A stretch of 64,000 bases of DNA from Treponemataceae bacterium (GCA_963678065.2 CAXXVZ010000005.1:96001-160000), one strand, 5' to 3'; shown: positions 828-18,275, counted from the first letter of the stretch. Numbers and translations: made by a program. Notes: generated by a model from the sequence alone, not told the origin.

Positions 828-1676
828 TCAGGGGACGCCGCCATTCCGGTATTTTACCTGCGCCGTTCCCGCCGCATACCCATAGAGGGCGACGTAGTAT
901 GTCGGATCAGGCGTGGAAAATACTTTGGATTTCTGGCCAAGCGAAGACGAAGTCTCATTCCCGACGAATACGCCGCTCGTGTCGAAGACATAGAGGTCCA
1001 GGTCGCCGGAAATGCGGTTGATGAAGAAGGTCGTCGTCCCGAGCGCTGCCGGCACCTTGTACCATTTCTCGCCGCGCAGCCCGAGACTCGCGGTGGACGA
1101 CCAGATGTTTTCCGTGCCCGTGAGATCTTCGACCAGGACGGGGATGCAATTCACCGTCGCGTATGAAGTGCTCCCGCCAGTTATCGTAATGCCGGAATTC
1201 CAGCCAATCGTCACGGGGTCGGAGCCATTGGCGTTGTTGTAGATCGATACCTTGAGCCAGTCGTAGCCGCCTGCGGGAATCTCCGAGATGCTCACGACGC
1301 CGAGGGTCGAACTCGTATTTATGGAAGTGGCGGGATAGCTCCAGGCCGAGAATGCCAAATTCGAACCCTTGTACAGTTCAAAGAGAACTTTGTCGGCCCG
1401 CACCCATGCCTTTGACGCGGCATCAACCGCTCCGGTCCGCTTCTGTGCCGCCTCGAGGGTCGACGGGGCCGCTATCTCGGGAGGTATACCCTCAGGCAGA
1501 GTGACGATTCCCCTCGAAGAACTGAGGGGTTCCAGGCTGACGGCGAGACTCCCCTTCGTCGAGGGATCGATGATGATAGTGCAGCCAGCGCTCACAAGCG
1601 CCACAGCAGCCATGGCTGCGAGGAGAAGGACCGGGCGTACATGACGGCGCGCCCTTGATTCCGAAACGGTTTTCAT
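828..1676 (-). CDS. Hypothetical lipoprotein with a C-terminal PPC-like beta domain
   Basis: Signal peptide ending LVSAG-C (lipobox-like); C-terminus KWYKV...GDLDLYVFD...TYYVALYGY resembles PPC domains; start chosen at ATG 1676. Confidence 0.55.
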   Translation of the reverse strand: MKTVSESRARRHVRPVLLLAAMAAVALVSAGCTIIIDPSTKGSLAVSLEPLSSSRGIVTLPEGIPPEIAAPSTLEAAQKRTGAVDAASKAWVRADKVLFELYKGSNLAFSAWSYPATSINTSSTLGVVSISEIPAGGYDWLKVSIYNNANGSDPVTIGWNSGITITGGSTSYATVNCIPVLVEDLTGTENIWSSTASLGLRGEKWYKVPAALGTTTFFINRISGDLDLYVFDTSGVFVGNETSSSLGQKSKVFSTPDPTYYVALYGYAAGTAQVKYRNGGVP

Positions 1677-1826
1677 CGCGGTGAACTCCCTTGTCGTATG
1701 CTTCACTACAATATACCGCCATTTCCCGGACTTTTCAGTTCAGACTCGGGTCGGGCCCCAGCGCGACAGGCCGTGGCGCCGCAAGCTCAAGGCGTAGCTG
1801 TGACACAGCGAGCGTGAGCGCAGGCT

Positions 1827-2621
1827 TTAGGCGTAGCTGTGAAGTCCCGAGAGGAGGAAGTTCACGCCGAAGAAGGTGAAGACCGTGCACAAAAAACCGA
1901 TGACGGAAACCCAGGCGGGGAGCAGTCCGGTCTTTCGCTTGATGAAGCGGATGTGCAGATAGAAGGTGTAGATGAGCCAGGTGACGAGGGCCCAGGTTTC
2001 CTTCGGATCCCAGGACCACCAGACTCCCCAGGCCTGCTCGGCCCAGATGGCGCCGAAGACCAGGGCCCCCGCCGTGAAGATCGGGAAACCGACAGCGATG
2101 GCCGTGTAGGTTATGCGATCGAAATCGGGGCGCTTCCTTTCATCCCGCGTGAAGATATAGGCCAGGGAGGCGACGAACCCGGCCACGAAGAAGGCCTCTC
2201 CGACAAAGGAGAGCGCCACGTGGGCGACGAGCCAGCCGGAGCGCAGAGCGGGGATCGGCGCGAGGAGATCCTTGGGAGCGAGAGGTGAGCTCGCGACAGC
2301 GAGGAGAACGAGGGCGACGACAGTCGCGCCGAACTGCACGAAGGGCAGGAAAATAAAGCGCTTCTGTGTCCGGTAAGCGAATCCCATCAGGCAGACGAAA
2401 CCCGAATAGAAGACCAGGGACTCGAATGTGCCGGTCAGGGCGGGGAATCCGATCCTGAACGAGCGGTCGGCGATGACGGCAGCGAGAAGCGCGGCAGCGC
2501 CGAGTAGGAGAAAACGGGATGCAGGCTCTCTCTCCCCTCCTTCCTTGCGGAAGAGGAATACCGCCTGGACTGCGGCAGAGGCGAGTATCAGCAGGATTGC
2601 GATGGTCGGCAGGCTGTTCAT
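1827..2621 (-). CDS. ccsA: Cytochrome c biogenesis protein CcsA/ResC (System II heme lyase)
   Basis: WWD motif WAEQAWGVWWSWDPKETW, conserved His residues (VAHV, YLH, GLHSY), many TM helices. Confidence 0.95.
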   Translation of the reverse strand: MNSLPTIAILLILASAAVQAVFLFRKEGGEREPASRFLLLGAAALLAAVIADRSFRIGFPALTGTFESLVFYSGFVCLMGFAYRTQKRFIFLPFVQFGATVVALVLLAVASSPLAPKDLLAPIPALRSGWLVAHVALSFVGEAFFVAGFVASLAYIFTRDERKRPDFDRITYTAIAVGFPIFTAGALVFGAIWAEQAWGVWWSWDPKETWALVTWLIYTFYLHIRFIKRKTGLLPAWVSVIGFLCTVFTFFGVNFLLSGLHSYA

Positions 2622-3553
2622 GGCTTCATGTCTCCGAGTTTCTGGATGAAGGTGAGAAAGAGTCCCACCACGACGAAGATGAGGGCGGCGAGAATGACAG
2701 GATACCCGGGATCGACGACGGCGTGGAGGCCGGTGATATCCGAGTCTTTCATCCCGGAGATGAGGAAGGGCCCGGCCCTGTCTCCGGCAGCGACGCGGAG
2801 GACATCGGTCTTTTCGCCCGATTTGAGGCGGATCACGGCCTTTCCCTTTCCGTCGTCGGCGGCCATGAAGTAGAGACTGGAGCCTCCGTCGGAGAACTCA
2901 CCGCCCTGGTCGAGCAGATGCTCCTTCCCGGCGGAATCCGCGACCGAGAGGGCGCGCTTCGCGCTATGCGAGAACTGGTAGAGGCTCATGGTGCCGAGCT
3001 TCAGGGGATGGTTGACGCGGATGGCGTAGCCTTCCTTCTCGATCTTCCCGTCCTTCATGACGCTCACGGTGGAAGTCCAATCCTTGGGCCGCCCGTCGTC
3101 GTAGGTCTCGTAGCTGAAGTCCGTCAACTCGAGGACGCGTGACTCGGGCATCTCGACCTTGTCGCCGACGGAGAGGCTCACCGACCCTTCCTGTTTGCCG
3201 GAGAAAGAGACGACGGAGCCGATCACGAGGATCATGAGGCCGAGGTGGAGAATGTCGGGACCGTGCCTGCGTCGACCTTTTTTCCGCAATTCGCGTAAAA
3301 GCCTGTCGATGGTGCAGACAGAGAGGTTGACGAAGAAGGCAAGGACCGGAATCAGGAAGAGGATCGAGGTGAAAAAGCGGGAAAATCCCGTCTGCACGAT
3401 GAGTTCGCCGAGGAGCCTTCCGTACTTTGCGGTGTAGGCCCCGGCATCCAGTCCCTGGGGAATGAGGGTCGCGAGGATTCCTGTCAAGGCGAGCCAGGCG
3501 ATGAGGAAGACAGCGAGCTTCATCGATTTGAGGGATTTGAAGAGTCGTTCCAC
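2618..3553 (-). CDS. resB: Cytochrome c biogenesis protein ResB/Ccs1 (System II)
   Basis: SMKLAVFLI...ATLIPQ, NLSVCT, ILHLGL, IRVNHPL and DPGYPVI motifs; 4-bp overlap with ccsA; GTG start at 3553 lies downstream of a predicted promoter. Confidence 0.88.
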   Translation of the reverse strand: MERLFKSLKSMKLAVFLIAWLALTGILATLIPQGLDAGAYTAKYGRLLGELIVQTGFSRFFTSILFLIPVLAFFVNLSVCTIDRLLRELRKKGRRRHGPDILHLGLMILVIGSVVSFSGKQEGSVSLSVGDKVEMPESRVLELTDFSYETYDDGRPKDWTSTVSVMKDGKIEKEGYAIRVNHPLKLGTMSLYQFSHSAKRALSVADSAGKEHLLDQGGEFSDGGSSLYFMAADDGKGKAVIRLKSGEKTDVLRVAAGDRAGPFLISGMKDSDITGLHAVVDPGYPVILAALIFVVVGLFLTFIQKLGDMKP

Positions 3554-3594
3554 GGATTTCCGCCTTGAGGAATCGAGAGATCGTCGGTGCAAAA

Positions 3595-3624
3595 ATGATA
3601 GTCGCCGCCTCATGGACCTGTCAA
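3595..3624 (-). promoter_or_regulatory. Sigma70-type promoter for resB-ccsA
   Basis: TTGACA (3624-3619), 18-nt spacer, TATCAT (3600-3595) on the minus strand. Confidence 0.5.
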
Positions 3625-3635
3625 CAACAATTCGA

Positions 3636-3657
3636 TGATAAAGATAGAATTTTATCA
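3636..3657. promoter_or_regulatory. Inverted repeat TGATAAA-N8-TTTATCA between the divergent promoters (candidate regulator site)
   Basis: Perfect 7-bp inverted repeat in the AT-rich intergenic region. Confidence 0.4.
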
Positions 3658-3667
3658 ACATATCGAG

Positions 3668-3696
3668 TTTACAATATTATATCACGGGTGTATGAT
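3668..3696 (+). promoter_or_regulatory. Sigma70-type promoter for the multiheme cytochrome operon
   Basis: TTTACA-N17-TATGAT, then RBS AAAGGAGG just before ATG 3729. Confidence 0.6.
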
Positions 3697-3728
3697 TCAG
3701 ATATAAATCTATACAAAGGAGGTATGCC

Positions 3729-4946
3729 ATGAAACGGATGACTGCGCTTGCAGTCTTCGCGCTCGCGGGTCTGGCGGCTTACGCCGCCGAATCGACCTGC
3801 GTCACCTGCCACACAGACAGCGAGACCATGAAATCGCTCTTCGTGCCGCCGGCGATGAGCGCGTCCGAAGGCGAGGGCTGAGCGGGAACTCCTCCCCCGG
3901 TCCGGGCGGATGAACTTTACCTGGGATTCGTCGTCGACAAGTCCCTTCTGGAAACCGATCCACATCTCAAAAATGACTGCACGTTCTGCCACAAAGGCGA
4001 CCCGACGGCTTCCGACAGGAGCCTCGCGCACGCGGGCGTGAACAAGCGTCCCTCCGACGACCTTGCGACCTGCGGGACATGTCACGAGGAGACAGTCAAA
4101 ACCTACAAACTCTCCCTCCACTACACGACAGCGGGCATGAAGAGCGGGGTGAATCCCCGGTTCTCCGGCGCGGAAGCCTCGGTCTACGATCAGAAGGTCT
4201 TCGAGCAGTCCTGTCGCTCCTGCCACGCGTCATGCGGCGACTGTCACGTCAAGAGCCCCACCATCTCCGGCGTCGATCTCGGTCTCATGGCCGGACACAA
4301 ATTTGTAAAGAAAGACGAGTCGAAGACCTGCGCGCTCTGCCACGGCGGACGCGTCTACCCCGAGTTCACGGGCGAATACGGCGGCAACGCCGATGTCCAC
4401 TACCAAAAAGGCATGTCCTGCACGGACTGCCACTCAGAGTCCGAAATTCATGCCAGCTCCGGAGCACAGAGCGACAGGCGCGCCGTTTCCGACAAGCCGT
4501 CCTGCGTGAAGTGCCACGCTCCCGGGACGGAGAAGACCGAAAAGGCGAGAACCGCGCACGCCGACCACGGCGATATGGTCTCCTGTTCCGCCTGCCACAG
4601 CTCGGCGGAGTACCGCGGCTGTGCATCCTGCCATCTCGGCGAAGGCGCTACATCGAGCCCCATGTTCATGCTCGGCGACAATCCGAGGAAACCCGGCCAG
4701 CTCACCACGCTGCGCCTCGTTCCCACGGTCCGCGACACGTTCAAGAAGGTCGGTATCGTCCAGGAAAACTTCGATTCGATGCCCAATCTCTGGGATACCG
4801 TTCCGCACAACACGCGCAAGCGCACCGAGCGCACGCGCGACTGCTCTGTCTGCCACTCGGAGAAGCGGAACGTCCTCACCGAGGAAACGCTCCCGAAGGG
4901 CGGATCCGAGGCCAACAAGAAACTCATTTTCGAGTTCATGTATTGA
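3729..4946 (+). CDS. Secreted 11-heme c-type cytochrome, predicted selenoprotein (Sec at codon 51, UGA 3879-3881); 405 aa
   Basis: RBS plus ATG 3729, signal peptide MKRMTALAVFALAGLAAYA, CVTCH, then ...SEGEG-UGA-AGTPPP... in frame with CTFCH and the nine CxxCH motifs of ORF 4038-4946; hairpin after the UGA; selC/selA/selB about 2 kb downstream. Confidence 0.88.
3882..3910 (+). promoter_or_regulatory. Candidate bacterial SECIS element
   Basis: UCC-U-CCC-(CCGGUCC)-GGG-C-GGA hairpin with a G-containing GGUC apical loop about 17 nt after the UGA. Confidence 0.6.
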
Positions 4947-4965
4947 ATTTTCAAGGAGAAAAACG

Positions 4966-5844
4966 ATGAAGAAGCTGTTTGCCATCCTCGTGCTCGCCGC
5001 CTGCCTCGCGCCGGCTGCCTTCGCAAGAGACATCGATCCCGTAGTCTCGGCCGCGTGGCTGGAGTCCAACCTCGCCAACCCCAACCTCGTCGTCATGGAC
5101 GTCCGCTCGGTGGAGAACTACAAGGCCGGCCACATTCCCGGCGCCGTCAATGTCATAGGGGCCAGTCTCTATGTGAAGAAGGGCGAGATCAACAACGAGG
5201 TGCCCGAGATGGATGAGCTCTCGGATACCCTCTCCGCGGCCGGAGTCAAGGCCGACTCCTGGATCGTCGTCGTCGAAACCGACGGCTCCCGCCTCGCCTG
5301 GTCCACGCGCGTCGCCTGGACTCTGAAATACGTCGGGATCGAGAACGTCGCCTTCCTCGACGGCGGCTACGCGGCCTGGACCAAGGCCGCCAAGCCCGTC
5401 TCCAAGGACGCGGTCACGAAGTCAGGCGGCTACACCGCCAAGGCGGTTCCCGCCTACTTCGCGGACAAGGCCCAGGTCCTTGCGGCAAAAGACGCTCAGA
5501 TCGTCGATGCGCGCACCTACGATACCTACTTCGGACTCGTCAGGCAGTCCTTCGTCGCTCAGGCCGGACACTTCCCCGGCGCGTATTCTCTCCCCTACAC
5601 CTGGATCCTCAACGCCGACAACATGGTCAAGTCCAAGGCCGACCTGGCCGCCTACGCCGCGAAGCTCGGACTCGACCCCTCCATCGAGACCATCGTCTAC
5701 TGCGACTCGGGCGTCCTGTGCACCGCCTGGTGGTATGCCTTCTCCGAGATACTCGGCTGGAAGAATGTCAGGAGCTTCGACGGATCCTCCCAGGTTCTCA
5801 CCGCCGATCCATCAGTCAAGTATGTGGCTCTGACCTGGCGCTGA
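4966..5844 (+). CDS. Secreted tandem-domain rhodanese/sulfurtransferase (possibly extended to 5928 by UGA readthrough)
   Basis: RBS AAGGAG; signal peptide MKKLFAILVLAACLAPAAFA; DVRS..YKAGHIPGA, LDGGYAAW, GHFPGA, active-site loop VYCDSGVLC, FDGS. Confidence 0.9.
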   Translation: MKKLFAILVLAACLAPAAFARDIDPVVSAAWLESNLANPNLVVMDVRSVENYKAGHIPGAVNVIGASLYVKKGEINNEVPEMDELSDTLSAAGVKADSWIVVVETDGSRLAWSTRVAWTLKYVGIENVAFLDGGYAAWTKAAKPVSKDAVTKSGGYTAKAVPAYFADKAQVLAAKDAQIVDARTYDTYFGLVRQSFVAQAGHFPGAYSLPYTWILNADNMVKSKADLAAYAAKLGLDPSIETIVYCDSGVLCTAWWYAFSEILGWKNVRSFDGSSQVLTADPSVKYVALTWR

Positions 5845-5928
5845 GCCCGGACGGCGACGGTCCGGTACTGCTACTCCTGTCATCACGCCGAGACCCTCGT
5901 CAACTGCAACAAGTGCCACAAGGAGTGA
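5845..5928 (+). other. In-frame diheme peptide ARTATVRYCYSCHHAETLVNCNKCHKE after the rhodanese UGA (readthrough extension or remnant of a small cytochrome gene)
   Basis: Two CxxCH motifs (CYSCH, CNKCH) in 27 codons, no start codon of its own, ends at TGA 5926-5928. Confidence 0.6.
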
Positions 5929-5988
5929 GGCGGCCGGGCACTGCGGAGGACTAAAAACTCCAAAGGCTCTGTCACAGAGACGATTGTC

Positions 5989-6022
5989 GATGAGGGGCCG
6001 GCCGCAAAGCCGGCCCCTCATC
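5989..6022. terminator. 14-bp GC stem-loop after the cytochrome-rhodanese operon
   Basis: GATGAGGGGCCGGC-cgcaaa-GCCGGCCCCTCATC perfect stem; no long U-tract. Confidence 0.55.
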
Positions 6023-6063
6023 ATCGAGGCCATTCCGGTCTTGGCCATCCCGGACAGGAAAGC

Positions 6064-6093
6064 TTGACCCCGCATCCGGAGTGCGGCTAGTAT
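6064..6093 (+). promoter_or_regulatory. Sigma70-type promoter of selC-selA-selB
   Basis: TTGACC-N18-TAGTAT, 7 nt upstream of the tRNA 5' end. Confidence 0.5.
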
Positions 6094-6100
6094 CGCCTGC

Positions 6101-6189
6101 GGAAGCAGACGGGGTCTGGTGGCTCCCGCGGTCTTCAAAACCGTTGGCCGCGCCTTGCGCGGCGGCAGGTCCGATTCCTGCCTCTTCCG
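6101..6189 (+). tRNA. selC: tRNA-Sec (anticodon UCA)
   Basis: Acceptor GGAAG(C)AG/CTCTTCC-G; 6-bp D stem GGGGTC-TGGT-GGCTCC; anticodon loop CT-TCA-AA (6135-6137); long variable arm GCCGCGC-CTT-GCGCGGC; T arm GCAGG-TCCGATT-CCTGC; directly upstream of selA. Confidence 0.95.
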
Positions 6190-6223
6190 ATCACCATGAC
6201 CGGCACCCGCCGAGGCAGAAAGC

Positions 6224-7672
6224 ATGACAGAACCATCCAGAGATATCCGTTTGCCCCAGATCGGCAGGATTCTCGAGAATCCGGATATCGCCGCGTTTTT
6301 TCCCCTCATCTCGCGTCCTTTGACCGCAAAGTCGGTGGCCGAAACGGTGGCGCGCATCCGCGCCTCAGCCCTGGCAGGCTCCGTTTCAGTCTCCGATACC
6401 GAAGTCATCGGACGCTGCGTCGACGACTGCCGCGCCCTCGCATCCAGACGACTCAGGCCTGTGCTCAACGCGACGGGCATCCTCCTTCACACGAACCTCG
6501 GCCGTTCGCCTTTGAGCGAGGGCGCGTGGGAGAAAGCCCGGCGGATAAATACAGGCTACTCGAACCTCGAGTTCGACCTCGGGGCGGGAGAACGGGGAAG
6601 GCGCGGGGGTCTCGCGCCTGAATTGGCCGCCCTTCTTTCGGGAGCCGAATCCGCCCTCATCGTCAACAACAACGCGGCCGCAGTGCTCCTCGCGCTCGGA
6701 ACTCTCGCCGCGGGTCGCGAAGTCATCGTCTCACGAGGGGAGCAGGTTCAGATCGGCGGCGGGTTCCGCATCCCGGAGATCCTCGCCCTGTCCGGCGCGA
6801 AACTCGTCGAGGTGGGAACGACGAATGTCACCACGGTCGACGACTACCTTCAGGCCCTCGGGCCGGAGACTGCCGCCGTCCTCGTGGTTCACAGCTCCAA
6901 CTTCGCGATCCGCGGATTCACCAGGAAGGCGGCGCTCGCCGACTTGGTCGGGGCGCTCCCCTCCCGCGTTCCCGTCATCGCCGATCAGGGATCGGGATGC
7001 ACCACAGAGCGCATCGAAGGCGAGATCCCGGTTTCGCGGTACATCGCGGACGGAGCAGCCCTCGTCTGTTTTTCCGGGGACAAGCTCGCGGGCGGACCCC
7101 AGGCGGGCATAATCGCGGGCCGCAGCGACCTCGTCGCGGCCTGCGCGCGTCATCCGCTCATGCGGGCGTTCCGACCCGGGAAAACCATCCTGTCGCTTCT
7201 GGAGCAGAGACTCGTCGAGATTCTCTCCGGAGTTCCCGCTCCGGCTTCGCCGCGGGATGCGGCCGGGCTCGAGACCTTCGGCGCGGCGATCCTCGCCGGA
7301 TTGCCAGGGGGAACGGCGCGCCTCGTCCCCTCTGTCGCGTCCACGGGAGGCGGAACGAGTCCGGACGAAGGATTTCCTTCGCGCGCGCTCGAACTGCTTC
7401 CACCGCTCGCCGCGCAGCGCCTTCTCGAAGCATTCCGGCAGGGCGATCCACCGCTCGTCGCGTGCGTGCGTGCGGGAAAGATTCGGCTCGACCTCGCGTC
7501 GCTGCGCGGCGAAGACCCGCGGCTCGTCGCACAGCTCATCATGGAGGCCCTCGCCTCCTGCGACAGCGATGCCCCATCGGGGAAGCGCGCCGACTCCGCC
7601 TGTTTCGACGTCTGTCATTCTTCTCCGCTCAGGGTTGGCGGCCCGGCGTCGGGTCCGGTCACAGGAGACTGA
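6224..7672 (+). CDS. selA: L-seryl-tRNA(Sec) selenium transferase
   Basis: VLNATGILLHTNLGRSPL, YSNLEFDL, VNNNAAAVLL, SRGEQVQIGGGFRIPE, EVGTTN and PLP-Lys motif FSGDKLAGGPQAG. Confidence 0.97.
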   Translation: MTEPSRDIRLPQIGRILENPDIAAFFPLISRPLTAKSVAETVARIRASALAGSVSVSDTEVIGRCVDDCRALASRRLRPVLNATGILLHTNLGRSPLSEGAWEKARRINTGYSNLEFDLGAGERGRRGGLAPELAALLSGAESALIVNNNAAAVLLALGTLAAGREVIVSRGEQVQIGGGFRIPEILALSGAKLVEVGTTNVTTVDDYLQALGPETAAVLVVHSSNFAIRGFTRKAALADLVGALPSRVPVIADQGSGCTTERIEGEIPVSRYIADGAALVCFSGDKLAGGPQAGIIAGRSDLVAACARHPLMRAFRPGKTILSLLEQRLVEILSGVPAPASPRDAAGLETFGAAILAGLPGGTARLVPSVASTGGGTSPDEGFPSRALELLPPLAAQRLLEAFRQGDPPLVACVRAGKIRLDLASLRGEDPRLVAQLIMEALASCDSDAPSGKRADSACFDVCHSSPLRVGGPASGPVTGD

Positions 7673-7676
7673 GAGG

Positions 7677-9290
7677 ATGCCTGTCGTCGGGACGAGCGGC
7701 CATGTGGATCACGGCAAGACGACCCTCATCGCAGCCCTGACCGGCGTCGACACAGACCGCTTGCCCGAGGAAAAAGCCCGCGGCATGACCACGGATCTCG
7801 GTTTCGCCCATTTTGCAGACTCGCAGGGCAATCCCGTCGGCATCATCGATGTGCCGGGCCACGAACGGTACATGCGCAACATGTCCGCCGGAGCTTTCGG
7901 CATCGATGGCGCCATCCTCGTCGTCGCCGCGAACGACGGCTGGATGGAACAGACGGGGCGACATCTCCAGATTCTCGAGGCTAACAAGGTTCCAATCCTC
8001 GCTGTCGCCCTGACGAAGGTCGACCTCGTCGCTCCCGACCGCGTGAAGGAAGTCGGCGAGGATATCGCGCGCAGGTTGCATCGTTCGCCCTCGGGGTCGA
8101 TTCCGGGTCCTGCGCAGCCCTCACCGGCGGGAGTAGAGAAGGAACTGCGGCGCCCGGCCGTATGTCCGGTCGACGCCGTGCGTGGCCTGGGTCTCGATGA
8201 ACTGAAATCAGCCGTTCTCGGCGGTCTCTCCCGTCTCGGGCCGCGCCCTTTCCCGACGGGTCCCTTGCTCTTCATCGACCGGGTCTTCCCGCTGAAGGGG
8301 ATTGGCGTTGTCGTCGCGGGGAGTCTTCGGGGCGGTCAGCTGAGGCAGGACGATGAACTCTTCCTCTATCCCTCCGGAGAGAAGCTGAACCTGCGGGGCC
8401 TTCAGGCATACGGACTGCCGGTCAGAGAGGCGCCCGAAGGCTCGCGGGTCGCGCTGGCCCTCTCGCGCCCCCGCGCGGAACCGCGCCGGGGTGACTGCGT
8501 CGCTTCCGCAAAGGCCGGCATCGTGGCAGCGCACTCCGTCTTCTTGCGGACCCGCCCTCCTCAAGGCGAGATGCCGGGTGCCGGCCGCCTGCGCGCCGGC
8601 ATGGAAGTCGAACTGTCAGCGGGCACCGCGAACAGGATCGCGACACTCTACCCATCGCGCGTTCCCGGCGTCCTCCATCTCGCGTGGACAGGAGAGCTCG
8701 CGCTGTACCGCGATGAGACTGTCATCGTATTGCGACATGGAGGCGCCGATATTCTCGCCTCGGGAAACATCGCGGCATTCGGAGGCGACTCGGCTCCCGG
8801 ACGTCGCCGGATCGAAGAGGAGCTGAGACAGAGCCTTCTGCCAACCTCTCCAGAGCTCTCTGTTCCGGCAAAGGGCACGAAGCTGTCCCCGGCAAGGCCT
8901 CTCCAGCGGGAGGTCCCTCCCCTCGCCCCATCGGCCCTCCAGGTACTCGGGCAGCTTCGCTCGGCCGGGGAACCGGGCATCGACGCTGAGACACGGCCTG
9001 TGCCCGGACTTCGCGCGGATCTTTCGGCGCTCTGCGCGCAAAACCTTGCCCTGAGCCTCGATGCGGGCCTGTTCATGGAAACTGGCCGCTACCACATCCT
9101 GACGGCGGCCATCCTCAGAGGGCGCGGGCCAGGCAGCGGCTTCGGCATCAAGGAAGCGAAAGACGCCACCTCGCTGTCGAGAAAATGGATCATTCCGCTC
9201 CTCAATCGCATGGAGAGGGACGGCTATGTCAAACGCGCGGGCGACACGAGAATCGTGACCGGGAAAGCGCCAGGACCTGAATCGGCCTGA
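7677..9290 (+). CDS. selB: Selenocysteine-specific elongation factor SelB (compact, 537 aa)
   Basis: GTSGHVDHGKT, DRLPEEKARGMTTDLGF, DVPGHE, TKVD, IDRVF; C-terminal winged-helix motif LSRKWIIPLL; start ATG 7677. Confidence 0.95.
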   Translation: MPVVGTSGHVDHGKTTLIAALTGVDTDRLPEEKARGMTTDLGFAHFADSQGNPVGIIDVPGHERYMRNMSAGAFGIDGAILVVAANDGWMEQTGRHLQILEANKVPILAVALTKVDLVAPDRVKEVGEDIARRLHRSPSGSIPGPAQPSPAGVEKELRRPAVCPVDAVRGLGLDELKSAVLGGLSRLGPRPFPTGPLLFIDRVFPLKGIGVVVAGSLRGGQLRQDDELFLYPSGEKLNLRGLQAYGLPVREAPEGSRVALALSRPRAEPRRGDCVASAKAGIVAAHSVFLRTRPPQGEMPGAGRLRAGMEVELSAGTANRIATLYPSRVPGVLHLAWTGELALYRDETVIVLRHGGADILASGNIAAFGGDSAPGRRRIEEELRQSLLPTSPELSVPAKGTKLSPARPLQREVPPLAPSALQVLGQLRSAGEPGIDAETRPVPGLRADLSALCAQNLALSLDAGLFMETGRYHILTAAILRGRGPGSGFGIKEAKDATSLSRKWIIPLLNRMERDGYVKRAGDTRIVTGKAPGPESA

Positions 9291-9432
9291 AGTCGACAAC
9301 CTCGCGGCGAACTGCGGAGGTATGAAACCCGTCTGCGAATGAACAACATGTCCAGGCCCTGATTGTCGCGCCGGAGCGCGATATTGTCTCGTTCAGATCG
9401 GGGAATCGGTTTCCATATAGCAGGGAGAAAAA

Positions 9433-9837
9433 ATGAAAAGCATGAAATTTTTGCCAGGCCTCATCGCGGTCGCGTTCATCTCCGCAGGTTTCCCGGGATG
9501 CGCGAAACTCGCGGAGATGAAGGCGATGACGGACAGCATCGGCACTCTCACCATCGGTCGCGTCGATGTTGCGGCTGTGCGGGACGGCGACTACGAAGGG
9601 TCTCAGGACAATGGAGCCGTGACAGCCAGAGTGGCCGTCACGGTGCGGGGAGGAAAAATCACGGCGATAAAGGTGCTGGATCACAGGCACGGGCCGGGAA
9701 AAAACCACGACGCCGGAGCCATATCCGACAAGGTCGTGGCGGAACAGAGTCTTCAGGTCGACGCGATCGCCGGGGCCACCGCCTCGAGCAAAGTAGTGCT
9801 CAAGGCCATCGAAAACGCGCTGACGAAAGGCATATAG
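9433..9837 (+). CDS. FMN-binding (flavinylation-type) domain protein, probable lipoprotein
   Basis: N-terminal hydrophobic stretch ending GFPG-C; DGDYEG, VTVRGGKITAIKV, VDAIAGATASS motif. Confidence 0.85.
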   Translation: MKSMKFLPGLIAVAFISAGFPGCAKLAEMKAMTDSIGTLTIGRVDVAAVRDGDYEGSQDNGAVTARVAVTVRGGKITAIKVLDHRHGPGKNHDAGAISDKVVAEQSLQVDAIAGATASSKVVLKAIENALTKGI

Positions 9838-9973
9838 ACGCTGACTGCTCTGGCCGCTCTCTCCGCCCGCCGCGCCGACTGAAGATCCTCCCGCGAGCTC
9901 TCAGGTCCAAAAGGTCCGAAGGGCCAGGCTGCCCGAACAAAGACCGGCGCAGCCGCATCGCGGGCCTTTCCCC

Positions 9974-11908
9974 TTACTTTAGGACCGATCTGGCCACCCT
10001 GAATCCGATAGTCCGGTCGTTGTTGAGCGGATTGTGATAGTTGCGGAAGGGGACGCGGGCGAAATCGGGCAGACGGTTCCATCCTCCTCCCCTCTTGACT
10101 CTCATGGTTCCGCTTGCCGGTCCCTTGGGATCCACCAGCGGTTTCCCTGTCAACGCAGGATAGATTCCATACCAGTCGTGACACCATTCCCACACATTCC
10201 CCGTCATGTCGAAGAGTCCGAGCCCATTGGCGGCCCTTGTGCCGACAGGCTTGGTTCCGCCGCCGGAATTCCGTGAGTTCCAGGACACAGCGTCGGCATC
10301 GTCCGAGCCTGAATACTTCAGCACGACAGAGCCGGGAAGAGTGCCGATCAGCCCGCCCCGTGCGGCGAATTCCCATTCGGCCTCGGTGGGCAGGCGGTAG
10401 CCGGGTTTGGAAAAATCGGCGGCGACGGTGGTCCCGGACACCGAGTAGACCCGCGGCAGGCCCGCGAGATCCGAGAGCGCGTTGCAGTAGCCGACGGCGT
10501 TGAACCAGCTCACCTGCTCCACAGGTCTGGAATCCGCCTCGATGCCATTCTTGAAGAAGCTCGGGTTGGACCCCATGATGCTCCTGTATTGGGCCTGCGT
10601 AACTTCGTTCCTGCCGATGTAGAACGCAAGGAGCGTCACGGGATGAACTGGCTTTTCGTCGGATTCGCCTGAGGCGGAACCCATGTTGAAAGTGCCCCCC
10701 TGGACCAACACCATTTCAGGAGTATCGACGAAGGTGTAGGAGACGACCGTGGCCGGGGAATCCTTCCAGCCCGGCTTGCCCGCGATAGCTGTTATCGTGA
10801 CCGAGCCCTTTGCCTGGAAGGGCGACGAGTACAGGTTCCCCCGCGAGGACGAGGGGAGGCTGCCGTCCATGGTATAGCGGATCACCGCTCCCGGAGTGGC
10901 ACAGGACATCGACACGGTGCGGTCAGGCGTATATGTCCCCGCGGCCGGCGAGACAAGGGGGGACGCGACCGTCCCCGTGATGACGAACTCTCCGACGGCG
11001 ACGGACGATATCCGGGAATCGGCCCCGACAGCGACCGCTTTGACGGTTTTCGTGCTTTCGATCCTGAAAGGAGCGGAGTAAACCGTCCCGGTTCCAGCCC
11101 CCGGTTCGCTCCCGTCAGTCGTGTAGCGGATACCCACAACGTCAGAGGCGGCTGCGAGGCTCACCGTGACAGCTTCCTGGAAGGTACCCGGCTCCGGGCT
11201 GAAGCGGGGAAGTGATGGAGGGAGGGCCACCGGCATCCCGGCCACCGGAGAGGCCGGAGCGGCAGCTGTCGCCGGATTCCGGGATGCCTGGACTTCCGCC
11301 TCGTCGTCGAAATTCTTCGACGAAACGCTCGATTCTTTCCATCCCGATCTGAAGGCTATGGCCTTCATGGTCATCCCCTTCTTCACGATCGCGGGTATCC
11401 CGGCGTACTCCATCCCGTAGACGGGGGTCGGTTCCGATCCGTCCAGCGTGTATCGGATCCTGGCTTCAGGTGTCGCGGTGCTGAGCTTCACCATGGTCGT
11501 ACCCGCCGGGGGAGTCGCATCCAGAGACTTTTCGATGCCCGGGGCCGCCACGGTTCCCGTGACGACATAGGTCGCGCTGACAATGTCGCTGGGCTTGCCG
11601 GAGGCGGGGACTGCGATGGCCCTGATAGTCTGGGATTTGTTCACGGGAATCGGCTTCATGTAGGTCTGGCTCTTCGTGCCTTCCTGGGCCGATGGCTCGC
11701 TGCCGTCCACGGTGTAGTAAATTTTTGCCGCCGGATCGGCGGGAAGCAGCTCGACCTTCTGCGGGCTGGTGTACGTTCCGTTTGCGGGCTTGAAGGAAAC
11801 GGCGGGAGGGGCGTCCTTCCCTCCCTTCGCCGTCGCGCAGCCCGCGAGCAGGGCGGCGAGGGCCAGGATAGCTATAAAAGAAAGAGTGGTATTCTTGCGA
11901 TGCGTCAT
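9974..11908 (-). CDS. Lipoprotein with four chitobiase/Fn3-associated repeats and a C-terminal SUMF1/FGE-sulfatase-like domain
   Basis: Lipobox LLAG-C; four Y-T-x-DGS-x-P repeats; EVTQAQY, RLPTEAEWEFAARGG, GLFDMTGNVWEW, GFRVAR; RBS GAGGA before ATG 11908. Confidence 0.85.
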   Translation of the reverse strand: MTHRKNTTLSFIAILALAALLAGCATAKGGKDAPPAVSFKPANGTYTSPQKVELLPADPAAKIYYTVDGSEPSAQEGTKSQTYMKPIPVNKSQTIRAIAVPASGKPSDIVSATYVVTGTVAAPGIEKSLDATPPAGTTMVKLSTATPEARIRYTLDGSEPTPVYGMEYAGIPAIVKKGMTMKAIAFRSGWKESSVSSKNFDDEAEVQASRNPATAAAPASPVAGMPVALPPSLPRFSPEPGTFQEAVTVSLAAASDVVGIRYTTDGSEPGAGTGTVYSAPFRIESTKTVKAVAVGADSRISSVAVGEFVITGTVASPLVSPAAGTYTPDRTVSMSCATPGAVIRYTMDGSLPSSSRGNLYSSPFQAKGSVTITAIAGKPGWKDSPATVVSYTFVDTPEMVLVQGGTFNMGSASGESDEKPVHPVTLLAFYIGRNEVTQAQYRSIMGSNPSFFKNGIEADSRPVEQVSWFNAVGYCNALSDLAGLPRVYSVSGTTVAADFSKPGYRLPTEAEWEFAARGGLIGTLPGSVVLKYSGSDDADAVSWNSRNSGGGTKPVGTRAANGLGLFDMTGNVWEWCHDWYGIYPALTGKPLVDPKGPASGTMRVKRGGGWNRLPDFARVPFRNYHNPLNNDRTIGFRVARSVLK

Positions 11909-13266: not shown

Positions 13267-16200
13267 TCAGGGCTCCCGGACGAGGATGAACTCGACCCTT
13301 CTGTTCTTCCAGCGCGTGGCAGGGTCTTTCGGGTCGACGGCGGGCAGCGAGGAGCCCAGACCCGCGACAGTGAAGCGCCTCGAGTCGAAGCCGCGCGCCA
13401 CGAGGAGGTCGCGGATAAAGCTCGCCCGCGCAAGGGAGAGGGGGACAATCTCGCCCTTCTCTTCCGCCTCGACCTTGTCGGCCGGGAGTCCGTTGATCTT
13501 CCCCTCATTGTTCGCGTGTCCCTCGATGCGGATGCGGTAGTCGGGGAAGCGGGAGAGTATCTGGACGAGACGGGAGAGCACCTTCTGGTTCCTGGCCTCC
13601 GACTGGGGCGCGAGCCCGGAAAAATCGGCCAGGGAGGCGCGGAACTCGATGGAAGGGATGTTGATCCTGATCCGCGAACCTTCTCGCACGACGAGGACAT
13701 CGACGGCGATGATCCCGCTCACGACGACCTGCTTGCCGGCAAAATCGCGGATGCGCATGCGGAAAGGATAGTCGCTCGCGGCCTCCACTTTTTCTCCGCC
13801 GGGATTTTTTCCATCCCAGGTTATGGACACGGGAGGGGCGCCGTTGCCGCTCCAGACTCGGAAAAGCCTCTCGCGTGTCTCGCGGGAATCGGGAAGCCCC
13901 TCGCCTGAGGCGGACTCGAGGACTTCGAGTCTCCAGGATGCGACGCGCGAAGGATCGTCCACCGTGACAAGAAAGGTGACCATGTCCTTGATACCGTCGC
14001 CGTCGGGGCTGAAGAAGTCCGGCAGGACGATAACTTCCAGTTTCGGAGCCGCCTCCTCGACGAGGATGGTCCCGCTCGATGCCTGTGCGATATCGCCTTT
14101 CAGATACACGACCGCGAGTCGCCCGAATACCTGCCCCCGGACGACCGCCCCCGTTTCGTCCCGCCCGTCCCAGACGAGGCGGCCGGGAACATCGCCTCCG
14201 GAGCGCCTGAAAAATATTTTTTCCGACTTGTCGGCGGCCACGATGGAGAAACTCCACGACATGATCCTGGAGTTCCTGTCGACGATCAGCGTGAAGCCCA
14301 CTTCGTCCATGAATCCATCGCCGTCGGGCGAAATGGAACTCGCATCCGCCTTGACGAAGACCTTGGGTTTGTTCGTGTCGAGGGAGAATTCCACTGTCCG
14401 CGACTCGCACTGATCTCCATTCGGGTAGGAGACCGTGATTTTTGCCGCGTAGTCTCCGTTCGCGGCCTTGGCGCCTGAATCCGCAATTCCGTTCCAGATA
14501 ATCGACTTCGGGACTTCTCCCTTCCCCGCGAAACTGCGGACCCGAAGCGATTTCGCCATTTCCGGACTCGATCCTTGAGCGGGGGTCGACGGGAGGGCGA
14601 GCACTTCGAGCGCGTAGGATGAGGATTTCACTCTGCTTGTCGTCGTTATCCCGAAATTCACCGTATCGCCCACTCCGTCGCCGTCCGGGCTGAAAACGCT
14701 CGGTCCTACGGAAAGCGATACGGCCTTCCTGTCCGTATCGATCGCCACTTGTATGGGGCGGGAGACATATGAGTGCCCTGCGGCGTCGCTGCCTTTCAAG
14801 CGGTAATCATAGCTCCCGTCGGCCAGTCTCATTCCTCCGGAATCACTCCCGTCCCACTCGAGGAAGGATGGAAGCTTCGCGCCGAAATCCCAGACTCTCA
14901 GAAGAAGACCATCGGAGTTCGACAATTCGCCCTTCCAGAGATCTCCGGCCGTTCCCGTCTGGGTGAAGCGCACCCGGCTTCCCGCCCCGGGAACCGAAGG
15001 GTTGATAGCCTGCCTGTCTGCCTGGATGAAGGCTTCCGGCGGGCTGGTATCGAGGGAGAACCAGGGCGAGGAGGCCTCCCCCGCGAACCCGTTGCGGAGG
15101 GAGAAAACGAGAGTCGCGCGGTAGCGCCCATCTTCCCAGGCCTTCCCTGTGGCGGGATACTTTCCGTCCAAGGTGATTTTTTCCGGCAAGGGCTCGCCGG
15201 TCTTGCCTTCCTGTCTGCGAACTACCGTTCCCGCCGCGTTCCGGACTGTGATGGACCAGACAGAGGGGAGGACGGCGGGGACGAGGCGGGGCAAAAGGTT
15301 TATCGTCTCGAGAATGCCATCCCCGTCCGGACTGAAAATATCCGGATCGCAGAGGAGGCTCCCGACAGGCCGCGAAAGGTCGACGACAAAACTCCCGGAG
15401 AGGGCGGTCGCCACATTTCCGGCCTCATCCATGCCTGAAAGCTCGAGCCGATACTCGCCTTCGGGCACGACGGCTCCCGAGTCGTCCTTTCCGTCCCAGA
15501 GGAATGATGGGGGGGGAAGTCCCTGAAAACTCCGCGAGAAAAAGGCTTTCCCGCCCACGTCGAGCGCGCGCAGCCTCCACTGACTTCCTCCGCCCGCGGC
15601 TATCGAAAACGCGATAGTATCCTTCTGCCCATCCCCGTCCGGACTGAAAACGGGTATCGCATCGACGATGGAGATCTTCGCTTCGGGCGGGCTCGTGTCG
15701 ACCTGAAACACGGGACTGTAGACGACGAGCTTGTAGCCGTTGCCGTATTCGAGGCTCAGAGCCGCGCGGTAGCTGCCATCGGGGAGAGGATCGCCCTTGC
15801 CCGTCCTTCCCTCGAAGGCGAAGGCCTGTCCCGCCGCGAGCCTGGCCCGGTCCTGCGTGGACCAGAGCTCGAAACCGGAGTCGTCGAGAACGGAAATCCT
15901 GAACTCCGCGAGATCCCCGTCCGATTCGAGCCAAGGTCGAATGGCAAGAGAATCCTTCACCCCATCGCCGTTGGGACTGAAAACGAGGCTGTCGATGTCC
16001 AGTGTCGCCTTGGGGCTGCGGGTATCGATCCTGATCCCCTCCAGGGTCCTGGACGCCGAATTGCCCGCTCTGTCCCTGCCCGAGAGCCGCGCCGAATACA
16101 GGCCGTCCGGGAGGGTCGTGCCCGAGCCGTCCCTTCCTTTCCAGACAAAGTCCGCAGGAACAGAGTCGGCCCATCCTTCCGAAGCCACGACAACCCCGGA

Positions 16201-17721
16201 GGAATCGAAGATCTCCAGTTTCCACGTGGCTTCTTTCGAGCCTGCCGCGTGCAGGACGAGACTGTCCTTCCGTCCATCGCCGTCGGGGCTGAAGACCCCG
16301 TCTCCCTCGTACGAGAACGCGATCTCGGGCGGCCTTCGGTCAATGATCACCGCGAGGAAGCCTTCGTAGTCGCGTATCCATGGGCCGTCTATGGCGCGAT
16401 AGATGAATCCCGCGATGTATTCGCCGTCGGGCGCCGCCTGCGTCGCAGGCCTCTTTGCTTCGACCGTCGCCGTCGCTCCCTGTCGAAGCGCGGCCTTTGC
16501 TCCGCCGGTCAGTGTTCCGTCCCAGATGAGGCTCCGGGGCAGGTCGATCCCCGCGTGGACCAGGGCGAGTGTGTCGCCGGCGGGCCTCATTTTCTGCATG
16601 GAGTCGGGATGGTTGTGCGCGATCTCGGCGATGTGGACGAGAGTGCCTGAGTTTTTCTCCCGTACACAGAACTCCAGCGCGCCCGCGTTCAGGGAATGCG
16701 TCGCCGTAAGCGGTATTTCGAGCCTGTCCTGAATCCCGTCGCCATTCGGGGAGATGAAGACAGAAGATGTCTTGTCCGACATCTCCGGCCTGATCGCGAC
16801 CGAAGAACCCCACGCGTAGGAGAGTGATCCGGCGACCGCGGAGAGCTGTCCGTAAAGGGGCTCGTAAGCCACCCTGGTCGAAATTCGCGCGGGCGAGGAT
16901 TCGGGAAGGGCCGATCCTGCGGCGGGGCGCCCGAGAGGGATGGAGGCCGAGAGGCTCAAAGAAGGCAGAAGGCTCCGCTTCGTTCCCGCGCTGCAGTCCT
17001 TCCAGCCGATATCCCAGCCTGCGAGCAGACTGAAACCTTCTCCGAACGCCATGTCGAGCGAAGAGAAGAGTCCGATGTCAGTCAATCCGGGGGCAACAAT
17101 GCCGAGCCCGAGTCCCATCCTGAATCCTTCCCGTCGCACGAGGAGGCTGTGCATGGCGAGTTTCGCGCTCACCACTGGGTCGATACCGATCTTGGGCATG
17201 CTGCGGTACATGCCCAGGGCAGGAAGAGGAATTCCGCCCGATACGCCCAATCCTGAAAGGGAGAATCCCCAGGAAAACTCCTTGAGGAACCCCAGATCGC
17301 CCGCGAAGTGCTCGATCCCCAGGTCCAAAGCCAGGTTCCAGCCCAGGCCCCCATTGTCTCCGATGGCTCCCGAGAGTCCCGCACCGGCGGAAAATCCGGG
17401 ACCGAGGGGGGCAGCGTAGCCGATGCGCGCCGAGCCGAAGGTTCCGAGAGGCAGGTCAGTCATGGAGGCGGGAAGATTGAGATAACGGAGAGAGAGCCCG
17501 AAGCTTCCCTTTTCGCCGCGCAGGCTGTAGGCGAGGGAAGCGACCTGACCGAAACCCTGTGCGCCCGATCCGAAATCGGTCAGGCCGTCGAAGTCGAGGC
17601 TGAGGCTCTGGAAGGGTACAGTCTTCTCAGCCTTCGCGCTCTGGGCTTCCGCGCCGGAGACCGCGAAGGCGATGAGGATGAGCGAGACGAAAAAGGCGTG
17701 AAATGGAATCTCCTTTGACAT
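13267..17721 (-). CDS. Large outer-envelope protein with FlgD-Ig-like repeats and a C-terminal OmpA-like peptidoglycan-binding domain (1484 aa)
   Basis: Signal peptide; eight (F/I)SPxGDG repeats plus WDG motifs; C-terminal IRIEGHAN...LSLARA...NRRVEF. Confidence 0.85.
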
Positions 17722-17837
17722 CTGCGGTACCCGTCCCGGATTTCTGTATAATTCCAGTATCGGACGAAAATCCTGCGAATAAAAGGGCCGAAACAAAAGA
17801 GTCGCGGCCTGAAGCGGATCGGTCACCGCTTCACGGG

Positions 17838-18275
17838 TCACCGCTCCACGGGGATGACACCTTTCTTTATGATGATATTCGCGTACTTGACCGTCTCTCC
17901 CGTCATGACGACGGCGAAGGCCTTTCGGGTCCGCTCGTAAAAAGCGAATCGCTCGATGCGCGCGATCGCCGGGGCGTCGGGCCAATGCCGGTCTATTGCG
18001 GCCCGGAAGGAAAGCTCGACAGCGGGGTCGAGGGTATCGCCTGAAGCCGGCGCCATCATGACAAAGGGCGCATCGGAGTAGGAATCGGGGTTGATGAGAG
18101 AGAGAATGCCGTCGAGCAATGCGGGAACGCGCAGGCCGTCGGCGCGGATTACCCTCTGGTTGCAGCTGTCGCCGGGAAAAAACGCGTCGGCGAGGACGAT
18201 CTCGTCGCCGTGCCCCATACGGGCGAGAACGACCAGGAGTTCAGGGGAGATCAGGGGAGAAATTCCGATGAGCAT
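17838..18275 (-). CDS. fucU: L-fucose mutarotase (RbsD/FucU family)
   Basis: [36 protein letters not shown]. Confidence 0.9.

Follow-up and report, generated by a model that had tools for sequence, protein, structure and literature searches.

A rhodanese-linked 11-heme selenocytochrome, a candidate sulfane-sulfur reductase, encoded beside selenocysteine-decoding genes in a Treponemataceae bacterium

A gene for an 11-heme c-type cytochrome with a predicted selenocysteine (Sec) residue lies beside genes for a secreted rhodanese, System II heme attachment and Sec decoding (Table 1) in a 64,000-nucleotide stretch of a Treponemataceae genome (GCA_963678065.2, CAXXVZ010000005.1:96001-160000; hereafter the window, with positions counted from its first base). 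Profile, tRNA and open-reading-frame searches recover, in place, every part of this gene island that a preliminary description of the DNA had named; the System II heme lyase is present as a CcsA and ResB pair by profile match, ccsA being the sole tblastn match of its kind in the genome, and tRNA-Sec is a single-copy gene. The start of resB may lie near 3553, since relatives align from residue ~36. As described, ccsA and resB are divergent from the cytochrome and rhodanese genes; tRNA-Sec does not follow the rhodanese directly, as had been stated, since 256 bases holding a relic of another cytochrome gene and a separate promoter-like site lie between them. Seven promoter-like sites were observed where shuffled sequence leads one to expect 0.9 for the whole 1500-10100 region. 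Contigs from two public runs match this layout, which is thus not an assembly artefact: those of run X7 are identical to the window at 3719-4053 and 4917-10200, and a single 12.2-kb contig of run X9 covers 1500-9451 with 113 differences. Two metatranscriptome runs hold just 150-260-base pieces over the cytochrome 3' end, the rhodanese and selA; DNA carry-over is possible, and we do not take these pieces as evidence of expression.

Table 1. Features of the selenocytochrome island, in window coordinates.
Feature	Position	Strand	Evidence
ccsA/ccsB, System II cytochrome c synthase subunit	1827-2621	-	TIGR03144 188.3 bits (cut-off 187.6); PF01578
resB/ccs1, System II subunit	2618-3661 (longest open reading frame)	-	PF05140 E 2.8e-35
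Divergent sigma70-like promoter matches, resB/cytochrome gap	3595-3696	.	4/7 sites of 1500-10100
11-heme c-type cytochrome, 405 amino acids	3729-4946	+	11 CxxCH, N-terminal signal peptide (by inspection), predicted Sec51
In-frame TGA, predicted Sec codon (GEG-U-AG), codon 51	3879-3881	+	kept in 81/81 loci
SECIS (selenocysteine insertion sequence)-like hairpin, 6-bp stem, GU-containing 6-nt loop	3893-3910	+	92.2% cells paired, 75 sequences
Secreted tandem rhodanese, 292 amino acids	4966-5844	+	PF00581 x2; active-site loop C246-DSGVL
Probable relic, tetraheme cytochrome c gene 3' end, two CxxCH	5845-5928	+	no start codon
Promoter-like site ahead of tRNA-Sec	6064-6093	+	TTGACC-18-TAGTAT
selC, tRNA-Sec, anticodon TCA	6100-6190	+	63.5 bits vs Rfam gathering score 47
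selA, selenocysteine synthase	6224-7672	+	TIGR00474 425 bits (cut-off 268)
selB, Sec-specific elongation factor	7677-9290	+	TIGR00475 232 bits (below cut-off 242); PF09107 winged-helix domain
Secreted protein binding flavin mononucleotide (FMN)	9433-9837	+	PF04205

A scan of GTDB genomes places the cytochrome family in at least 227 species-level stretches, 80 of which were kept and, with the window, make up the 81 loci used here. The TGA stands in a G-U-A-G context in every one of them, and TAA or TAG never occupies its site; in the window's gene it is the only in-frame TGA, with one CxxCH upstream and ten downstream, and each of the 37 cytochrome matches among 301 genomes of the order also holds one internal TGA. 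The hairpin begins 11 bases past the TGA, its degree of pairing is reached by none of 500 shuffles, and controls slid along the alignment are 35-65% paired; two stem codons keep a third-position G in 77 of 77 sequences irrespective of the amino acid, and the stem shows five two-sided changes, with a covariation score that one slid control equals. Among 98 further homologues, Cys occupies the Sec column in nine and lies one column off in four, and selA was found in 37 of the 38 other cytochrome-bearing genomes tested. The internal UGA of the 11-heme cytochrome is thus almost certainly read as selenocysteine, as first proposed from the window alone. That the TGA should instead be a true stop in a split or broken gene, a view that could cite the storage of most homologues in databases as N-truncated proteins of 300-350 amino acids and a hairpin that in the window is no more stable than shuffles (single-sequence energy, z 0.06 to 1.0), is extremely improbable given TGA alone at 81 loci, the unbroken single polypeptide of the Cys, Ala, Ser and Arg forms, the lack of a signal peptide on the part downstream of the TGA and the co-occurrence of selA. 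Locus L032, set aside, carries a frameshift ahead of its TGA, between heme 1 and the Sec codon (7900-8170), with the TGA and hairpin retained.

The cytochrome matches no NCBIfam family at cut-off, a PDB search with its single sequence gives weak heme-motif matches at most, and a Foldseek search with its model returns nothing at E ≤ 0.001. Its AlphaFold2 model, built from 138 sequences (mean local confidence, pLDDT, 87; global confidence, pTM, 0.84), matches the fold of octaheme tetrathionate reductase (OTR, PDB 1sp3) with Z 10.1 and a root-mean-square deviation of 4.0 over 251 residues, the next chain reaching Z 4.8, in a setting where helix-rich models can attain middling Z scores by chance; a hidden Markov model match to OTR (E 2.9e-10) agrees with the fold match. 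In the profile alignment hemes 3-9 and 11 map in order onto the eight OTR hemes, leaving hemes 1, 2 and 10 as extras, and heme 4 (C162-H166) is predicted to correspond to OTR heme II. The part of OTR that includes Lys56 is an insertion relative to the cytochrome-family profile, in a region where the alignment is weak. Nine non-motif His residues are invariant in the cytochrome loci; as these are fewer than the eleven hemes, two hemes should have an open or non-His site.

Sec51 lies in the loop between hemes 1 and 2, and Arg208 is the residue most tied to this Sec/Cys loop. Of the 58 homologues that have Cys or Trp or are cut at the N-terminus, 55 carry it, vs 8 of the 40 that do not; in these counts P0045 and P0227 are misfiled as Cys, the TGA of 38 truncated proteins is presumed, and kin are not independent. 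Of five close homologues that lack Sec, four also change the G-G-R motif. We infer a Sec/Arg site that would lie at heme 4.

The pairing of cytochrome and rhodanese proposed in the preliminary description is borne out: a rhodanese lies downstream within 1.5 kb in 65 of the 81 loci, and in P0153 and P0174, two of 50 long homologues scanned, the cytochrome and tandem rhodanese domains form a single fused protein. The catalytic Cys of the rhodanese is invariant in 37 aligned sequences, and among solved structures the protein is closest to thiosulfate sulfurtransferases (E 5e-30).

Clustering of heme lyase and Sec genes with the cytochrome, also proposed earlier, is evident in spirochaetes. The neighbours in 28 spirochaete loci, some of them short, are rhodanese (26), ccsA and resB (24), tRNA-Sec (16), selA (15), selB (14), selD (8) and the FMN-binding protein (1), so that synteny with both rhodanese and sel genes, whose absence the preliminary description had named as grounds to abandon its proposal, is found; the non-spirochaete loci among the first 80 have no sel genes in their flanks. 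The remark that multiheme cytochromes are not typical for the group was overstated, since 37 of the order's 301 genomes carry the cytochrome, with 16 of 53 positive in one family and 18 of 35 in another, and ResB was found in 26 of 36 genomes from the same family; almost all the order-wide cytochrome matches come from families f1 and f6.

The Sec pathway tracks the cytochrome closely. Among 42 genomes of f1 and f6, selA and the cytochrome occur together in 11, neither occurs in 28, the cytochrome alone in one and selA alone in two, and in a hand-picked second set, four of whose negatives are repeated from the first, 24 of the 25 genomes with the cytochrome have selA and none of the 12 without it does; the genomes are related, and these counts overstate the number of independent events. 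In the cytochrome-only exception (G014) the contig ends after tRNA-Sec, with selB elsewhere; in a selA-only exception (G023) selA sits on a 1.7-kb contig. Outside f1 and f6, selA without the cytochrome does occur. Joint loss can be seen in one genome, G001, where on a single contig stretches of 100-150 bases stand in place of the 2.35 kb with the cytochrome and rhodanese and of the 1.9 kb with selB. In addition, resB is shorter and the anticodon arm of tRNA-Sec is scrambled, whereas the same-genus relative G021 is intact; this is one event in one metagenome-type assembly. Within the decaying island (L153, G001:C7:16000-34000, at 7100-9470) the selA open frame remains. Screens of the window's genome, which are noisy and could miss a short or C-terminal Sec, reveal no other credible TGA read-through gene: matches to SelD, formate dehydrogenase, peroxiredoxin and thioredoxin have no internal stop, and GrdA was not found in a search that lacked a positive control. 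Since selA tracks the cytochrome and G001 has lost selB along with cytochrome and rhodanese, Sec decoding in f1/f6 spirochaetes seems to be kept mainly for this one enzyme.

A Sec/heme enzyme with a related role is known from Geobacter: according to a 2026 paper, MccSep cannot be dispensed with in sulfur respiration, uses Sec at a heme to reduce polysulfide, accepts selenite as a second substrate and is inactive on nitrite (PMC13510729). The cytochrome described here resembles this protein (ExtKL, GSU2937-2936 of Geobacter sulfurreducens) in being a periplasmic multiheme c-type cytochrome with one Sec at an in-frame UGA, a short SECIS and a rhodanese (ExtH) in the same gene cluster (PMC13510729), and by this analogy its Sec/heme chemistry on S-S bonds is likely of the same kind. 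It differs in having 11 hemes rather than five, in the placement of Sec in an N-terminal loop rather than in the C-terminal immunoglobulin-like domain of MccSep, and in having no non-motif Cys that corresponds to the MccSep heme ligand C239. The kinship with ExtKL and ExtH suggested earlier is not supported: the ExtKL profile NF040886 has no match in the genome, nor for the cytochrome at E ≤ 0.01, and the ExtH model NF040901, of 430 positions, gives the 292-residue rhodanese 53.3 bits vs a cut-off of 200. MccSep is not among the fold matches listed, its presence in the structure library being uncertain.

OTR (SO4144) is the best fold match, and its eight heme motifs and most distal His ligands map in order onto the cytochrome. 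The differences are the three extra hemes, the low identity (20%), the lack of a match to TIGR04315 at E ≤ 1, the position of Sec upstream of the OTR-like core and the apparent absence here of the stretch with Lys56, which is the OTR heme II ligand (PMC3769277). The cytochrome shares the fold, not the profile, of OTR and falls outside the MccSep family. In a 2026 selenoproteome review, the TIGR04315 family has a GenBank-annotated Sec form, and Table 1 of that review gives ExtKL, GSU2204 and TIGR04315 alone as CxxCH-type selenoproteins (PMC13188914). Otr/SirA-like multihemes with rhodanese genes occur in Dethiobacter alkaliphilus, a molybdenum-free sulfur and thiosulfate reducer, where DealDRAFT_1917 lies in a cluster with rhodanese genes and is more strongly expressed on thiosulfate; unlike the cytochrome here they are described as octahemes, and the word selenocysteine does not occur in the main text, a comparison by description only (PMC10376724). 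The literature searched, which did not take in subscription papers and supplements (including MccSep data S1/S2), holds no description of an 11-heme selenocytochrome family.

The arrangement also recalls the Psr/Sud system of Wolinella succinogenes, where a periplasmic rhodanese brings polysulfide sulfur to the reductase, as we propose here. Psr depends on molybdenum and has a membrane anchor of its own, whereas here the catalyst would be heme and Sec. We propose, with a probability of roughly 55%, that the cytochrome is a periplasmic, rhodanese-fed sulfane-sulfur reductase, an 11-heme selenocytochrome of OTR-like fold, and that the Sec genes beside it are kept mainly for it. In this proposal SelB would bind the hairpin and insert Sec at codon 51, the cytochrome would be exported and CcsBA would attach its 11 hemes. 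Cys246 of the rhodanese would carry a persulfide, and the Sec51 selenolate, on its flexible loop, would attack an S-S bond near heme 4, aided by Arg208; the heme chain would deliver two electrons, with release of HS-. The substrate reduced to sulfide would be polysulfide or the persulfide on the neighbouring rhodanese. Electrons would come from menaquinol via a carrier encoded outside the island, and in a sugar fermenter the whole would serve as an electron sink, not a full respiratory chain.

Menaquinol as donor is suggested by genes around non-spirochaete homologues: operons outside the spirochaetes encode an 8-heme protein in 25 loci and, downstream in 17 loci, a 9-heme plus cytochrome b protein, and one homologue, P0165, has a NapC domain fused to the cytochrome. 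The 8-heme protein, of ~650 amino acids, follows the rhodanese in operons of Syntrophales type (L056, 5625-7592, and 24 other loci) and matches no NCBIfam family at cut-off.

Several observations weigh against the proposed sulfane-sulfur reductase, as do the chance Z scores of helix-rich models and the relatedness of the genomes given above. Model confidence is lowest in the Sec loop (pLDDT ~60). All 22 Cys residues lie within CxxCH motifs and relatives have no conserved extra Cys, which leaves no equivalent of the Cys/Sec pair of MccSep. In five close homologues (P0038, P0045, P0047, P0057 and P0092) Sec is replaced by Ala, Ser or Arg, so that the scaffold persists without it; judged by sequence these are possible non-catalytic paralogues. 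OTR reportedly also acts on nitrite and hydroxylamine in vitro. The island encodes no electron donor, no quinol oxidase is found among the conserved neighbours in the 28 spirochaete loci, and the TmcC-like cytochrome b of this genome occurs in just 3 of 12 cytochrome-positive relatives.

To these must be added genes for metalloid handling, which lend themselves to another reading: that the enzyme reduces or detoxifies a metalloid (selenite, tellurite or thioarsenate) while the rhodanese handles released sulfur or selenium. One of acr3, arsC or arsM is found in 11 of 28 spirochaete loci and 5 of the 81 first-set loci vs 1.1% of random 17-kb windows of the genome, ArsR and permease cassettes also flank loci in Geobacter, Pelobacter and Clostridia, MccSep takes selenite (PMC13510729), and selD lies inside 8 of 28 loci. 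The ars genes of the window's own genome, however, are on other contigs, the spirochaete cases are related and may represent few events, selD is required by any selenoprotein, and the link to rhodanese is far tighter than that to ars genes, so we regard this reading as unlikely. As a separate observation, ars-type genes (ArsR, permease, Acr3, ArsC, ArsM or a small thioredoxin-like protein) are frequently found less than 10 kb from the cytochrome, and this in several phyla, as at L004, L005, L009, L107-L109, L160, L161, L164, L166 and L168 and also L018, L025, L029 and L078.

The reaction could also run in the oxidative direction, with sulfide or thiosulfate oxidised at Sec/heme to rhodanese-bound sulfane sulfur and electrons passed to menaquinone and cytochrome bd, conferring tolerance of oxygen or sulfide. 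TsdA and SoxAX do oxidise thiosulfate at His/Cys hemes (PMC13510729), and the genome has cydAB-like genes together with menaquinone prenyltransferase and decarboxylase genes. The named hosts of the family, by contrast, are mostly anaerobic Syntrophales, Geobacteraceae and Nitrospirota, and the multiheme/cytochrome b protein in host operons is, by analogy, of a quinol-oxidising type; we consider the oxidative direction quite unlikely.

Weaker fold matches to HAO and octaheme nitrite reductases (Z 4-5), and an OTR fold in which heme 4 probably has an open site, would suit a nitrite or hydroxylamine reductase that the rhodanese merely matures or protects. Such an enzyme leaves the invariant Sec, the rhodanese fusions and the coupling of Arg208 to Sec unexplained, OTR Lys56 falls in an insertion apparently absent from the cytochrome family, and MccSep is inactive on nitrite (PMC13510729), so that we judge this reading highly improbable. 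We give equally little credence to a protein that conducts or stores electrons but does no catalysis, with Sec serving only to tune one heme: Sec-less close and distant homologues do retain all 11 hemes, and some family members have 16-19, but the entire Sec pathway is kept or lost with the cytochrome gene, basic residues co-vary with Sec and the rhodanese travels with the cytochrome.

The proposal of a rhodanese-fed reductase can be taken further, to a bolder form that we hold to be doubtful: Sec51 would be a direct axial ligand of a c-type heme (His/Sec) and would alone cleave the sulfane S-S bonds delivered by the rhodanese, replacing the Cys and Sec pair of MccSep, and spirochaetes regarded as fermenters would keep an entire Sec-decoding pathway and a heme lyase for that enzyme, to respire sulfur. 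This locus contributes the assignment to the OTR fold, the tie between Arg208 and the Sec/Cys loop, and the observation that the Sec pathway is coupled to the cytochrome and has been lost jointly with it. The family would be a second, unrelated Sec/heme scaffold beside MccSep, with an OTR-like fold, and one that surveys of sulfur metabolism and selenoproteomes miss because annotation cuts the cytochrome in two. The spirochaete island, with lyase, cytochrome, rhodanese and selCAB, is the smallest expression package seen here and would be a clean case of a Sec trait kept, and lost, with a single gene; the proposal predicts that spirochaetes commonly regarded as fermenters reduce sulfur and need selenium and heme.

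As to origin, the closest relatives of the cytochrome are from Spirochaetota or Rectinemataceae. In a quick tree, from which 14 near-duplicate or broken loci were omitted, 18 spirochaete and two Bacillota cytochromes share a single clade with support 99 that stands among sequences from Desulfobacterota and Nitrospirota; the root is weak, and L042, labelled spirochaete yet placed among Smithella, was set aside. In a quick SelA tree, sampled without broad Bacillota, 14 island SelA proteins group with the SelA of a same-order spirochaete, apart from 29 SelA proteins of other cytochrome hosts, and transfer of the whole island from Desulfobacterota is therefore not supported. Most simply, these trees would mean that the cytochrome and rhodanese genes were acquired once as a pair, long ago, and that lyase and sel genes already present in the host were brought beside them later.

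Contrary to the earlier claim, the island is not fully self-contained. Although selA, selB, selC and selD are all present in the genome, selD, in a Cys form, is on contig C3 (G000:C3:1583740-1588523), hemB was not found in this 99.9% complete genome, and the island has no quinol oxidase. Since hemB was not found, heme is likely imported; the host is likely a heme auxotroph despite its heme lyase, 11-heme protein and cytochrome bd-like genes. Around selD on C3 lie cysteine desulfurase, YedF-like and yqeB/yqeC/xdhC-like genes, a probable selenium-cofactor cluster. The cytochrome is the only multiheme open reading frame found in the 5.27-Mb genome, and a secreted 459-residue protein with one CxxCH and no NCBIfam match (L121, 4411-5787; G000:C5:320411-321787) is the only other candidate CcsBA substrate seen.

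Two candidate members of the system were rejected. The FMN-binding protein, counted as part of the module in the preliminary description, is syntenic in one of the 28 spirochaete loci, and its homologues occur in 45 of 61 genomes irrespective of the cytochrome. The TusA-DsrE2-TmcC/TmcB-like cluster on C5 was considered as a fixed electron donor and rejected on its occurrence in only 3 of 12 cytochrome-positive relatives. This operon (L115, G000:C5:472100-475525) encodes ArsR, DsrE2, TusA, a TmcC/NarI-like cytochrome b and a TmcB/DsrK-like protein, with homologues in 19 of 61 genomes, and the N-terminal VSGAS repeats of its cytochrome b resemble what we take to be flavinylation motifs.

Behind the rhodanese TGA, 27 in-frame codons contain two CxxCH motifs and no start codon (5845-5928). 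This tail is 81% identical over 26 amino acids to the C-terminus of the tetraheme cytochrome of L097 (5506-6078), which is a separate gene in L097-L101; searches of the window's genome recovered neither the remainder of that gene nor its flavoprotein partner, and no other adjacent rhodanese has a diheme tail in the 81 loci (1 of 28 spirochaete loci, the window itself). The sequence is likely the relic of a deleted tetraheme cytochrome gene. We considered whether the rhodanese might itself be a selenoprotein that extends into a diheme tail, and rejected the idea: the tail is seen on no other adjacent rhodanese and corresponds to the C-terminus of a separate gene, and the hairpin after the rhodanese TGA begins at +3, nearer than a usual SECIS. 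Read-through of this TGA is very unlikely; at a low level in a Sec-decoding cell it would yield a rhodanese with a diheme tail. In L097 (5506-6078), L098 and L099 the tetraheme cytochrome has low-complexity D-A-x-S-x-A-[ST] repeats and lies 3' of the gene for a 621-residue flavoprotein of twin-arginine translocation (Tat) type. Farther along the window, 13267-17985 encodes a large secreted protein with repeated domains and, by inspection, an OmpA-like C-terminus, unrelated to the selenocytochrome.

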